A stretch of 64,000 nt of DNA, taken from the IMG/VR virus record IMGVR_UViG_3300024270_000052; one strand, given 5' to 3'. Position 1 is the first letter of the stretch. Every line of letters starts with the position of its first letter. A program made the position numbers and the translations under genes. Below the pieces are notes generated by a model. The model did no database searches. It was not told the origin of the DNA and saw nothing but the letters and a program-made list of their open reading frames with translations. Positions 1 to 64,000 of the stretch are shown here, in pieces. The DNA comes from a virus. Its lineage: Duplodnaviria; Heunggongvirae; Uroviricota; Caudoviricetes.

Positions 1-1183
1 CTTATTAATACTAATTTATCTTTAGCTCTTGTGATTGCTGTATATAACCATTTTTGATGTTCTTCTTTATTGAATGGAAATCTTTCTTCAAATACTAAAA
101 CTTTATTCCATTCACTACCTTGTGCTTTATGACAGGTAATAGCATAAGCATATGCAAAATCATATGGTGGCTCTAAATCACAATTTTTATTTTTTTTCAT
201 TTTATATATTTCAATTGGAGTTAATGTTGAAGTATTATTAACTAAATAATTATAATCAATTGGAATATTCATAAAAGTATCATCTTCAAAATCCATATGA
301 GTCATCATATATTCAATTGGTGCCGTTCTAATATATCTAAATGTATATTTATTTTGTTTAAAAAAAGAATCTATTGTTCCAATAGAGCCATTTGTGAGTG
401 GCCAATTTCCATTAGCAGAATAGAATTCCCAATGATTAGATAGACTGATAATCTTATCTCCGACACATGGCTCTGGGCCATATCCCTTTTTTTCTCTAAT
501 AAAATTATTTATGTAATTTCTTGTATCATTAGTGGCGCAAAGAATTTGGTCTGCCCAATCATACATTCCAGTACAAATTTCGTTTTTAGAAAATAATTTT
601 ACTTGTTCTCCTAATGCTTGAAAGCTACTTAAAGGCTTACCCTCTCTTACATGCATTGATAGTCTAATAATTTCACTATCTTGCGCTTGCCGCATAATTT
701 CATCAAGAAAAATATGCGGATTATCTAATACATGATTATTGTCTTCTGGATTTACAGGTGGTAACTGGCCGGGGTCGCCGCAAGCTAATACATATATTTT
801 ATGACTTAATAACAAATCCCACATAGGCTTAGGTAACATAGATACTTCATCAACAACAATTACTTTATAAGCATCTTCTAAGTTTTTCCGTGGTTCATGA
901 ATAAACTTTCCACTTGGTAATTGTTTAGAATAATAAAGTAATTTATGCGCAGTAGTAGCATTATAGCATCCTTTTTGTTTAAGAACAGTAGCTGCTTTAC
1001 CAGTAAAAGCTATATAACAAACTTCAGTTACTGGGTCTACTGGTAAAGCTGAAATAATATATTTAATTAAAGTACTTTTACCACTACCAGCATATCCTGA
1101 AATTATAGTATATGGTTCTTTATCAAAATATCTTTTAATAGAAATAGTTAAACCTTCTGTTTGTTTATTTGTTAATATCATTT
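1..1183 (-). CDS. SF1 DNA helicase, Dda/RecD-like (C-terminal part; continues beyond the window start)
   Basis: Minus-strand reading frame open to the window edge, start ATG near 1183. Walker A 'GYAGSGKST', Walker B 'VIVVDEVSM', motif VI-like 'ITCHKAQGSEW'. Absent from the ORF track only because it has no upstream stop inside the window. Confidence 0.7.
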
Positions 1184-1417
1184 TTAATCCTCTTTATTAT
1201 TTACATGAGCATGTACTAATTGTTCTAAACAATTATAAAAGTGCATTTTTTGAGTTTCTGCTTGATTATGTTCTTGTTCATAATCATGACTACGCTCTGC
1301 TTTTAATCTAGCAACTTCGTCACAGAGAATAGCATATCTAAAATAAATGCTATCAAAACCAAAATCTAATCTATCTTTATATAAATTTTCTAATGCTTTT
1401 TCCTCTATTGTAATCAT
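1184..1417 (-). CDS. hypothetical protein (77 aa)
   Basis: Complete ORF in the track, in the operon-like minus-strand series. No recognisable motif. Confidence 0.4.
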   Translation of the reverse strand: MITIEEKALENLYKDRLDFGFDSIYFRYAILCDEVARLKAERSHDYEQEHNQAETQKMHFYNCLEQLVHAHVNNKED

Positions 1418-1773
1418 AAGTTAAACTCCTTTATAAAATTTTCGTACCATTTATCAATTTGCTCAAAAATTTCTAAATCACTTTTTTCTTTTGGTTTCTC
1501 GGTCTCAGCTTCCAACACCGGCCGGAGCAATTTTTCCTCCATTAAATAGACAGTATTCATTATATGGTCATATGTAAGCAATTTATTTTCAGTATCATTA
1601 ATCCTAGCATCTAAATTTCTCACCTAATCTTCTATTGTGTCTATACGACCGTAACGACCAAGTGCTTTAACTATATCTGTAACTTCATATAATGAAATTC
1701 TATATTTATCTTCAAATTGATTTTCAAACCATGTGAAATTATCTTCACCAAGCTTTATTTGAGTTTGTATCAT
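1414..1773 (-). CDS. hypothetical protein with one in-frame TAG
   Basis: ATG at 1773; the frame runs through CTA at 1624-1626 (TAG on minus) straight into track ORF 1414..1623. Upstream part reads MIQTQIKLGEDNFTWFENQFEDKYRISLYEVTDIVKALGRYGRIDTIED(TAG)VRNLDARIND... Confidence 0.45.
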
Positions 1774-1800
1774 AAATATATTTACCCCTCACTTATTATT

Positions 1801-1842
1801 ATTTCTATATATATTATATCATATTTTTTTATAAAAATCAAA
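1801..1842 (-). promoter_or_regulatory. conserved sigma70-type promoter cassette (copy 1)
   Basis: Plus-strand 'tttctatatatattatatcatatttttttataaaaatcaa'. On the minus strand: -35 TTGATT (1836-41), 17-nt spacer, extended -10 TGATATAAT (1813-21). Confidence 0.6.
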
Positions 1843-1844
1843 AA

Positions 1845-1864
1845 GGGAAGATTTTATTCTTCCC
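1845..1864 (-). terminator. rho-independent terminator
   Basis: GGGAAG..(8)..CTTCCC stem followed by a T-run on the minus strand; fused to promoter copy 1. Confidence 0.5.
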
Positions 1865-62697: not shown

Positions 62698-62765
62698 ATT
62701 TTATTTCTCCTTTTTCTCTTTGTTCCCTCTTGGACAAGAGGGATTTTATTTTTTATCTTTTTTAA

Positions 62766-62808
62766 TTTTCTATATATATTATATCATATTTTTTTAAAAA
62801 TGTCAATT
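62766..62808 (-). promoter_or_regulatory. promoter cassette copy (-35 TTGACA) upstream of the vWA gene
   Basis: 'ttttctatatatattatatcatatttttttaaaaatgtcaa', preceded by hairpin ccctcttggacaagaggg. Confidence 0.55.
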
Positions 62809-62821
62809 AAAAATTGTAAAA

Positions 62822-63625
62822 TTAATTAATTAATCCCCACTCTGCGAATTTTTCAAAACCGCCAAGTCCTTTAATATATCCACGTGCTACTTCTACAATT
62901 TCTGAATAAAGTTTAGTTTCTGTATCTACTGTAATTGTGGTATCACCAATAGCGCAAGAGATTTCTACAGGCTTGCCGGTCATTTGTGCAAAAATATGAG
63001 CATAAATATTAAGCGATATATCTGCTTTAGATAAATCCTTACCATGAAGTCCTCCACCGGTTACTGCATCTCCCATATCAGAGCCAAGTTTGCGGTTTGT
63101 CGCTCCTGTATCTACATCTGGACCGCCAGTCCAATAGCCGAGTGGATTAATATGAGCATCCGAATAATGACTAGCAATATCTTCTGTAGCAGCATTACTT
63201 TGGCAAATTGTTAATTTATCACCATCAAGAATATATTTTCCATCATAAGGATAAAGTTTATAAATACGTTTAGCAGTTTGTGTTAATTGCTTTTGCTCTT
63301 CAGTTGAAGGAATACCTTTAAAAATTCCATTATCACCACATCTAAAACCATATGCTTGATTTTTAGCAAGATAAGAATCCTGCAATACACACTTAAACCG
63401 AACTTTTAGTTTAGGCATTTCTGCAATGCGACGTGCTATTTTTACAACTTCTTTCTTTTTTAACTATTCAGAAGTTTCTGCAATAATTGTACATTCTCCA
63501 TGCCCAATAAGTACCTCAACTGCAACTTTTGGATTTTCATTAAGACTATAAGCATAATCAACAATAGCTCCAGCAATGCGGTCCGCAATCTTGTCTGGAT
63601 GTTTAGGATTTACTTTTTCAAACAT
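62822..63625 (-). CDS. metK: truncated S-adenosylmethionine synthetase (MetK)-like protein, one in-frame TAG
   Basis: ATG at 63625, TAG at 63464-66. 'KHPDKIADRIAGAIVD' (compare MetK 'GHPDKIADQISDAVLD'), 'RCGDNGIFKG', 'HINPLGYWTGGPDVDTGATNRKLGSDMGDAVTGGGLHGKDLSKAD...ISCAIGDT' match MetK N- and C-terminal domains. Only 267 aa against about 385: most of the central domain and the C-terminal 70 aa are missing. Confidence 0.55.
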
Positions 63626-63639
63626 ATATATTTTCTCCT

Positions 63640-64000
63640 TTAAAATAAAATTTCAGCATTTTCATGAAATAATAATTTACATGATTGTTTTCCTGTACAC
63701 ATATAATCATCATTTTCACTAGATTGACCACCTTGCTGAATATTAAATAATTCAAAAGGAAAAGTCTTTCTATTAAAACGAACCATTCTAATTTCAAGGT
63801 CTCCATTAATTCCACAGAAAATAATTTCTTCCCAATCTTTAGACATACCAATATGATTAAACATGAATTCAAAATTACAATTACGGTTAGTCGCAGCAGA
63901 AAATTTAATTTCAGTCTTAATTCCATTTACAATGCGATCATGACCTGAATTTTTTGCTGATGAAACATTATAATTTAATTGTTTAAGTAGTTCTTCAACA
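63640..64000 (-). CDS. hypothetical protein (N-terminus beyond the window end)
   Basis: Frame of track ORF 63640..63864 stays open upstream to the window edge. Confidence 0.35.
   Translation of the reverse strand, partial: VEELLKQLNYNVSSAKNSGHDRIVNGIKTEIKFSAATNRNCNFEFMFNHIGMSKDWEEIIFCGINGDLEIRMVRFNRKTFPFELFNIQQGGQSSENDDYMCTGKQSCKLLFHENAEILF

Follow-up and report, generated by a model that had tools for sequence, protein, structure and literature searches.

The stretch of DNA analysed here (hereafter the window), 64,000 nucleotides (nt) of the Caudoviricetes virus record IMGVR_UViG_3300024270_000052, is with a probability of about 0.93 part of the genome of an uncultivated, AT-rich tailed phage of more than 100 kb in which TAG serves as a glutamine codon. 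The recoding is of the code-15 type (TAG to Gln), a known class, and is not new in kind. This class was first predicted from metagenomes and has been proven by proteomics in crAss-like phages (PMC9523058); it comprises the Lak, crAss-like, Jade, Sapphire, Agate, Garnet, Amethyst and Topaz clades (bioRxiv 10.1101/2021.08.26.457843). Recoding itself is already well described and is chiefly an annotation matter, and one public gene caller (ENA annotation) had read a contig of this phage with TAG as sense. What lifts the window above an ordinary new member of the class is the architecture of the suppressor tRNA encoded just past its end, which represents a widespread family.

An earlier note on this DNA, made from the letters alone, had proposed that at least 24 genes need TAG to be translated while TAA and TGA still terminate, in the manner of code 15 and with Gln as the likely residue, and had suggested that the genes be called again with TAG as sense. 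We ran a gene caller, with a codon-usage model trained on TAG-free genes with Pfam matches, under three codes. With TAG as sense it called 81 genes at a coding density of 94.7%, compared with 89 genes and 83.1% under the standard code (code 11) and 88 genes and 82.3% in a control with TGA as sense. The gain from TAG-sense calling was 11.6 points; published coding-density criteria for recoding ask for a rise of 5-10%. In-frame TAG was present in exactly 24 genes, with 51 codons in all. Complete genes terminated with TAA (68) or TGA (12), including the TGA at 58131-58133 that ends the second fibre gene, and none needed a TAG terminator.

Past an in-frame TAG the median open run was 213 codons, and 44 of the 51 sites had a run of 50 codons or more. 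Off-frame TAA and TGA together occur at about 9.7% per codon, so that a non-coding frame is expected to close after about 10 codons and the probability of an open run of 50 is roughly 0.6%. Pfam domains and homologue alignments continued uninterrupted across the TAG positions. The assertion in the earlier note that every large gap between standard-code genes is explained by TAG held for 20 of the 23 gaps that are 150 nt or longer, which were wholly or partly filled by TAG-sense genes, and failed for three true intergenic spacers (25110-25285, 43146-43317 and 51524-51767).

That TAG is still a stop here, with the 24 genes being split, pseudogenes or subject to rare leaky readthrough, or that the TAGs are assembly errors, we regard as extremely improbable, and the present data already contradict it. 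Three TAGs do sit 1, 4 and 11 codons ahead of TAA or TGA (in NAD synthase, gene 7612-8142 and NADAR, respectively), where translation could stop without consequence; whether TAG is read or not has hardly any effect on the product of these genes. The JGI standard-code annotation of the identical sequence is also fragmented at TAG and lists the pieces as separate genes. Against this stand the long open runs past TAG, the single Pfam domains that run on across it, the absence of any gene requiring it as a terminator and the cognate suppressor tRNA encoded next door. Moreover, the in-frame stops found within alignments to relatives were 511 TAG as opposed to 9 TGA and 6 TAA, and independent samples had yielded 22 contigs with this same DNA, as an exact-protein look-up showed.

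ENA gene calls on identical DNA (843, 565, 750, 193, 267 and 820 amino acids, aa) were equal to the TAG-sense models, and the standard code breaks about a quarter of the window genes, including those for the lysin, the tail fibres, PhoH and the flotillin-like protein. Two plus-strand open reading frames (ORFs), 48779-51289 (836 codons) and 61135-62829 (564 codons), were rejected as low-complexity shadows of the minus-strand genes for an 820-aa MVP-shoulder-like protein and a DUF2828 protein, which they overlie; such shadows would mislead longest-ORF methods. Greedy longest-ORF tiling indeed chose both of them and inflated standard-code coverage to 91%, and the codon-usage caller was used instead.

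Residue at TAG and a suppressor tRNA past the window end

Judged from alignments, the residue inserted at TAG is glutamine. Among 120 homologues of the lysin (21432..23063), Gln occupied the columns of three TAG codons in 117 (codon 281), 118 (codon 330) and 78 (codon 311) cases. Because some homologue proteins could themselves be table-15 translations, the lysin test was redone on DNA from 80 IMG/VR loci, where CAA or CAG was found in 75 (281), 72 (311) and 73 (330); the remaining loci showed TAG at 281 and 330, and Glu or Asp codons plus one TAG at 311. Another 240 or so related loci brought the TAG sites with at least five aligned relatives to 17. The log-likelihood summed over these sites was -30.2 for Gln, -67.3 for Glu, -80.5 for Lys and -83.3 for Ser, placing Gln ahead of Glu by 37 units, with Tyr, Trp and Leu below Ser. 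In the reverse test, the commonest window codons opposite TAG in relatives were CAA (49) and CAG (8).

Two hints on the residue in the earlier note fared less well. The TAG of the S-adenosylmethionine synthetase (MetK) had been placed at a conserved Trp/Tyr position; aligned to solved structures, it sits at a gap, within variable sequence directly past GE(I/T)TT, and it was discarded as evidence for Trp or Tyr. One solved MetK structure has Gln two residues beyond this gap, and no MetK relatives were present among the fetched loci. The TAG of the fibre N-domain, said to lie at a Lys/Arg position, is opposite Arg in three relatives, in a column that is variable, and the fibre genes were set aside as residue evidence for having too few aligned relatives.

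No tRNA was detected inside the window by ARAGORN, in agreement with the earlier note; a suppressor tRNA gene does exist 1.2 kb past the window end. Six loci (L001-L006) are 100% identical to window positions 51180-64000 (12.8 kb), extend past the end of the window and carry the following features:

Window-equivalent 64.2-71.7 kb, minus strand: array of 14 tRNA genes
Window-equivalent 65203-65297 (L002 7401-7495), minus strand: 95-nt tRNA gene with anticodon CUA

The suppressor scored 53.7 bits against the Rfam tRNA model over its full length. Its acceptor end has A1.C72 unpaired and G73, its D arm has a 4-bp (base-pair) stem and a 7-nt loop, its anticodon stem-loop is CCGGA-CUCUAAA-UCCG, and its 27-nt variable region folds as a hairpin, that is, as a fifth arm. 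CCA is not encoded in the gene (L002 7401-7498, 3' end ...GGGGCCGCGGA), and is encoded by the neighbouring Ser, Leu, Tyr and Gln tRNAs and by most homologous suppressors. The genuine tRNA-Gln of these phages have U1:A72 or A1:U72 together with G73, and therefore the acceptor end of the suppressor can be called Gln-like. Compared with 600 phage tRNAs, the core showed similarly low resemblance to Lys, Gln and Thr tRNAs and was close to no class II tRNA, being closest to class I. Some relatives of the phage have ordinary suppressors of 74-76 nt, one of them clearly derived from a phage tRNA-Gln.

A known amber suppressor of the Gln kind is the E. coli supE-type tRNA-Gln(CUA), and glutaminyl-tRNA synthetase (GlnRS) mischarges CUA tRNAs with a weak 1:72 pair (cited in the discussion of bioRxiv 10.1101/2021.08.26.457843). 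The phage suppressor shares with the supE type the CUA anticodon, G73, an unpaired or weak 1.72 position, G10 and a class I-like D arm. It differs in that its 27-nt variable region forms a second anticodon-like hairpin, the supE type being an ordinary four-arm cloverleaf of about 75 nt with a variable loop of 4-5 nt, and in that CCA is not encoded. The long extra arm and G73 are shared with class II tRNAs and allo-tRNAs (Ser, Leu, Tyr; PMC5389517). Unlike these, the suppressor has a 4-bp D stem, a small D loop and a 7/5 acceptor/T branch, its extra-arm loop copies the Gln anticodon loop, and TAG stands opposite Gln, not Ser. Derivation from a class II tRNA for Ser, Leu or Tyr was rejected on the D stem, which covaries and is 4 bp long as opposed to the 3 bp of that class, on the D loop, which has 7-8 nt and is large in that class, and on the alignments, in which these residues are strongly disfavoured.

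We consider it very improbable that TAG is sense but encodes another residue, whether Ser (a long arm and G73 directing the tRNA to seryl-tRNA synthetase), Tyr or Trp (from the MetK hint) or pyrrolysine (from the label tRNA-Pyl that ARAGORN gives to the suppressor). The 27-nt variable region and G73 would suit the first of these, and relatives do have Ser at two of the TAG columns, in 24 of 67 for gene 12811-13080 and in 8 of 24 for PhoH. The summed likelihoods nevertheless place Ser far below Gln, and Tyr, Trp and Leu lower still, and invariant Gln columns of the lysin hold TAG here and in other relatives. For Ser, Leu and Tyr, moreover, the D arm is class I-like and the core resembles no tRNA of these kinds; for pyrrolysine, the variable region has 27 nt as opposed to the 3-nt variable loop of known tRNA-Pyl, and neither pyl genes nor Pyl-related Pfam matches were found among the window proteins scanned; for Trp and Tyr, the MetK position is gapped and variable.

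Several points weigh against the assignment of glutamine through a phage-encoded suppressor. The residue was assigned from alignments. Some TAG sites face Glu, Lys, Tyr or Ser in relatives (codons 20 and 34 of the RecJ-like gene, 478 of the lysin and 37 of gene 12811-13080), all in variable columns. Since a long variable region with G73 is also used by seryl-tRNA synthetase, the tRNA sequence may allow some Ser charging. Finally, neither release factor 2 (RF2), GlnRS nor any other code-change gene or synthetase was found among the window proteins scanned, in a genome of which less than 73 kb was read.

In described TAG-to-Gln phages, a phage-encoded tRNA(CUA) is present in about 40%, and RF2 or GlnRS are occasional and do not define the class. 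The window phage shares with code-15 gut and rumen phages TAG at Gln positions, TAA and TGA as stops, a phage tRNA(CUA) and, as far as the scanned window proteins show, the lack of a dedicated synthetase; unlike the survey phages as described, it has a 95-nt five-arm suppressor and no RF2 in the 73 kb readable here. phAss-1 (proposed Phassvirus), a gut phage of about 136 kb and siphovirus type with TAG in 41 ORFs and a tape measure protein of 3149 aa (PMC10607447), also encodes tRNA(CUA) suppressors; conserved positions led to Gln as the residue there, and the phage has no synthetase of its own (PMC10607447). Unlike phAss-1, the window encodes gyrase, NAD-dependent ligase and NAD salvage genes, and it had no megablast match to the phage collection. 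In the proposed course of events, the phage tRNA(CUA) would be made after infection and charged with glutamine by a host enzyme, and the charged tRNA would then outcompete release factor 1 at UAG.

Two side observations concern tRNA biology. A related 188-kb phage contig encodes a transfer-messenger RNA (tag peptide AKPYRLAA; L087 2404-2752) beside its long suppressor. In the window itself, a set of genes has the look of a tRNA repair kit: a Thg1-like 3'-5' nucleotidyltransferase (36684-37547), an RNA ligase (39521-40927), an AAA_33 kinase (27343-27867) and three metallophosphatases (26790-27356, 28370-29053 and 43635-44345). Thg1-like enzymes restore tRNA 5' ends templated by the 3' strand, and such a gene is curious beside a suppressor tRNA in which position 1 is mismatched to C72.

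A second anticodon-like hairpin

The variable region of the suppressor forms the hairpin CCUG-UUCUGAG-CAGG, the 7-nt loop of which holds U-CUG-A where an anticodon loop has U33, the anticodon and A37; the corresponding loop of the phages' own tRNA-Gln(CUG) is CUCUGAC. At the level of sequence, the anticodon found in the extra arm belongs to the amino acid that the reassigned stop codon encodes, and this pattern gives independent support to glutamine in this phage.

Homologous long suppressors were recovered by pattern scan from IMG/VR, JGI metagenomes and one rumen metagenome-assembled genome (MAG) (L087 3000-3090, L100-L118, L232, L234 and L276-L393). A motif-blind scan, which asked for a long spacer between a CUA loop and a downstream T loop, yielded 44 unique long suppressors, 29 of them with YYCUGA in the variable region. 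When these were pooled with the earlier ones (51 unique long CUA suppressors), U-YUG-A was present in the variable region of 34, compared with 2 of 197 other tRNAs with a long variable region (Fisher 1e-26). Three more long suppressors had CUUUGAA, which is the loop of tRNA-Gln(UUG).

The hairpin is supported by covariation: the two loop-closing pairs were each formed in 32 of 33 distinct sequences, by CG, GC, UA and AU types, and pairing dropped from 72% to at most 48% when the register was shifted. These values come from an extra-arm alignment anchored on the loop; whole-tRNA alignment with MAFFT and RNAalifold left the variable region unaligned and predicted no extra-arm pairs. In 28 of 34 cases the distance from the loop end to the T stem was 9 nt, the same as from the anticodon loop to the T stem in real tRNA-Gln and tRNA-Trp. 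In silico removal of the CUA hairpin converted 25 of the 34 into tRNA-Gln(CUG) of 71-76 nt as called by ARAGORN.

A parallel arrangement was seen in opal suppressors. Among 24 long UCA tRNAs from IMG/VR, 13 carry GUCCAAA or CUCCAAA, the tRNA-Trp anticodon loop (L400, L416, L426, L438, L448, L454, L455, L457, L462, L473, L478, L497 and L498), on covarying stems of 4-5 bp; the spacing to the T stem is the same as in the amber suppressors, and the acceptor ends are tRNA-Trp-like. The remaining 11 are without the motif, and most of them resemble tRNA-Sec.

GlnRS and TrpRS, the synthetases for glutamine and tryptophan, both read the anticodon, and for this reason the correct charging of stop-anticodon tRNAs by host enzymes is a puzzle in recoded phages. 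We tentatively propose, at somewhat less than even odds, that many phage stop suppressors are two-headed five-arm tRNAs in which the second head (U-CUG-A for Gln, U-CCA-A for Trp) gives the host synthetase its identity signal. In the case of glutamine, the second arm would supply G36, which is lost in the CUA anticodon, and either the second head would dock in place of the first or the two hairpins would swap their stacked position; the two putative states would have a common secondary structure and be told apart only at the tertiary level, by the hairpin that is stacked on the D stem. If this is true, the built-in cognate anticodon loop would explain correct host charging without a phage-supplied synthetase, the decoded amino acid would be predictable from the tRNA gene alone, and a second anticodon loop could guide the design of engineered suppressor tRNAs.

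The extra hairpin could also be the relic of a tandem duplication of the anticodon arm in a tRNA-Gln(CUG) gene, retained through descent or because it serves stability, processing or protection from host nucleases. We favour the identity signal as the likeliest role of the arm and take the relic for its main rival, a serious possibility though likewise short of an even chance. Such a duplication would give exactly the observed distance to the T arm (9 nt in 28 of 34), and the closing stems are short, mostly of 2-4 bp. GlnRS, like other class I synthetases, binds the tRNA face away from the variable region, which fits a relic and is a geometric difficulty for a simple cis decoy or docking model. 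On the other hand, U-CUG-A persists in sequences with covarying closing stems and different acceptor stems, the design recurs independently as CCA in opal suppressors, and the motif is nearly absent from ordinary long variable arms (the 2 of 197 given above). Stem covariation, opal recurrence and rarity elsewhere point to selection on the loop sequence itself.

Three phage tRNA-Ile(UAU) of 91-94 nt (L200, L218 and L305) have an extra arm whose loop, CAGAUUA, is conserved and includes the major Ile anticodon, GAU; the stems of this arm covary (GCAC/GUGC, GC/GC and GCGC/GCGC). A second-anticodon design may thus extend to sense codons that a host synthetase would refuse.

Full-text literature searches returned no description of the extra arm. 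The closest published remark is that phage suppressors might be non-canonical, with no such structure described (bioRxiv 10.1101/2021.08.26.457843), and tRNAs of recoded jumbo phages have been noted to contain 'introns' (PMC13037316).

TAG-bearing genes and their genome context

The genes that carry in-frame TAG, together with one TAG-free block, are the following:

1414..1773, minus strand: 119-aa gene; TAG at codon 50 (1624-1626); TAG-sense call, without homologue support
3064..4467, minus strand: RecJ-like DHH/DHHA1 exonuclease; TAG at codons 20 and 34; Pfam DHH and DHHA1; 23 and 31 relatives cross the sites, in variable columns
7612..8142, minus strand: phrog_4680 protein, 176 aa; TAG at codons 13 and 172; PHROG match 4-161 crosses TAG 13, which faces E (26), K (9) and Q (8) in 47 relatives
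8240..9229, minus strand: AAA_24 ATPase; TAG at codon 70 (9020-9022); Pfam AAA_24 (residues 21-204) crosses it; Gln in 61 of 75 relatives
9250..10182, minus strand: phrog_2367 protein, 310 aa; TAG at codon 218; PHROG match 7-298 crosses it; Gln in 35 of 68 relatives
10635..11459, minus strand: phrog_6721 protein, 274 aa; TAG at codon 31; PHROG match 2-241 crosses it; column variable in relatives
11766..12716, minus strand: coiled-coil and GIY-YIG nuclease; six TAGs at codons 62-145, all upstream of Pfam GIY-YIG (224-310); codon 71 is also TAG in 5 of 7 relatives
12811..13080, minus strand: 89-aa gene; TAG at codon 37; Gln in 33 and Ser in 24 of 67 relatives
13176..20503, minus strand: TAG-free block of NAD-dependent ligase, gyrase A, gyrase B and RNase H (Pfam); no TAG in 2387 codons
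20661-20945, minus strand: small gene upstream of the lysin; two TAGs; TAG-sense call
21044-21316, minus strand: small, putatively membrane-spanning, holin-like gene upstream of the lysin (membrane character from sequence); two TAGs; TAG-sense call
21432..23063, minus strand: lysin with VgrG3-like C domain and Amidase_2; 11 TAGs, the most TAG-dense gene; both Pfam domains cross TAGs
23108..24382, minus strand: PIN-PhoH; TAG at codon 166 (23885-23887); Pfam PIN_4 (10-131) and PhoH (226-422) on either side; Gln in 14 of 24 relatives
25286..26749, minus strand: flotillin-like SPFH protein; TAG at codon 157 (26279-26281); Band_7 (48-209) crosses it, with the Flot domain downstream; Gln in 19 of 19 relatives
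29915-30412, minus strand: NADAR (Pfam); TAG at codon 154 of 165, 11 codons before TGA
30381-31235, minus strand: NAD synthase (Pfam); TAG at codon 283 of 284, 1 codon before TGA
37618-37917, minus strand: small gene; two TAGs; TAG-sense call only
38996-39232, minus strand: small gene; one TAG; TAG-sense call only; with the preceding gene it flanks a TAG-free SPFH gene
47010..48638, minus strand: fibre-like protein, 542 aa, with Mtd_N-type N-terminus; three TAGs; gene call; TAG 43 opposite Arg in three relatives
48761..51223, minus strand: MVP-shoulder-like protein, 820 aa; TAG at codon 5; ENA call with the same start and length, Pfam MVP_shoulder
53822-56353, plus strand: fibre gene; four TAGs; ENA 843 aa on identical DNA
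56436-58133, plus strand: fibre gene; one TAG, TGA end; ENA 565 aa on identical DNA
58219-60471, plus strand: fibre gene; three TAGs; ENA 750 aa on identical DNA
60536..61117, plus strand: 193-aa gene; TAG at codon 51; ENA 193 aa on identical DNA
62822..63625, minus strand: short S-adenosylmethionine synthetase, 267 aa; TAG at codon 54 (63464-63466); ENA 267 aa; both halves match solved MetK structures

The three plus-strand fibre genes (53822-60471) matched Pfam Phage_fiber_2 and Mtd_N. Four joins across TAG had been checked by hand in the earlier note, and those of the AAA_24 ATPase, the flotillin-like gene and the fibre gene 53822-56353 (843 codons, identical to the ENA call) are confirmed by the matches listed; the PIN-PhoH join also holds, with a start at 24382 in place of the one given at 24388, which was two codons longer.

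Window-wide, TAG made up 8.5% of TAG+CAA+CAG, and its spread among genes was uneven (permutation p 2e-4). In the block 20661-26749 (two small genes, lysin, PhoH and flotillin) the TAG share was 22% (p 2e-4). The metabolic block 26790-47008 had a share of 2.9% (p 0.006), and in the ligase, gyrase A/B and RNase H genes 47 CAA/CAG codons were accompanied by no TAG (binomial p 0.03 relative to the window average). A published survey found heavy recoding in lysis and structural genes and variable recoding in replication genes (bioRxiv 10.1101/2021.08.26.457843). It is also a published idea that in such phages part of the early genes stays readable in the host code, with late or lytic genes behind the suppressor. 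Like code-15 gut and rumen phages, the window phage uses TAG most heavily in lysis and structural genes and to a varying extent in replication genes, and its TAG distribution fits the early/late idea, yet there is no clean switch: the RecJ-like, AAA_24 and PhoH genes, which are of replication type, also carry TAG, which weakens a simple early/late scheme.

The window has a G+C content of 31.6%. Minus-strand genes take up the first 51.5 kb or so, a fibre block on the plus strand follows at 51.8-61.1 kb, and from 61.2 kb the genes are once more on the minus strand. Pfam and PHROG matches of its proteins are those of a large tailed phage. The replication and repair set comprises an SF1 helicase, the RecJ-like exonuclease, primase, DnaB, the AAA_24 ATPase, NAD-dependent ligase, gyrase A and B, RNase H and the GIY-YIG nuclease; the lysis and membrane set comprises the two-domain lysin and two SPFH/flotillin proteins, with PIN-PhoH in the same part of the window; and further genes encode a tail protein, several fibre proteins with Mtd_N-type N-termini, the DUF2828 protein and the short MetK. 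Megablast of two window segments against 50,697 GenBank phage records gave no match, and an exact 40-mer taken from the end of the window was absent from IMG/VR; the phage itself is therefore in neither collection, and it was traced by the exact-protein look-up. Many syntenic relatives were found in IMG/VR on contigs of 75-400 kb. A weak hint at host and habitat came from the 3' half of the suppressor, which was matched once in 185,579 species genomes, on a 9.4-kb contig (L103 2779-2868) binned in a rumen Erysipelotrichaceae MAG (RUG12586).

Further features of the gene content were recorded. A cluster at 29915-37547 has the look of NAD salvage and ADP-ribose metabolism (NADAR, NAD synthase, nicotinate phosphoribosyltransferase, a Macro domain, a cytidylyltransferase-like (NMNAT-like) protein and an isochorismatase/nicotinamidase-like protein) and may counter NAD-depleting host defences. 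RecJ is spread over two ORFs, DHH/DHHA1 (3064-4467, TGA end) and RecJ_OB (2723-3067), which overlap by ATGA. The 820-aa MVP-shoulder protein (48761-51223) together with the two SPFH/flotillin-type proteins (25286-26749 and 38044-38952) is an unusual set for a phage. The S-adenosylmethionine synthetase (62822-63625) has just 267 aa; its N- and C-terminal parts match solved MetK structures of about 380-415 aa, and the middle is lacking.

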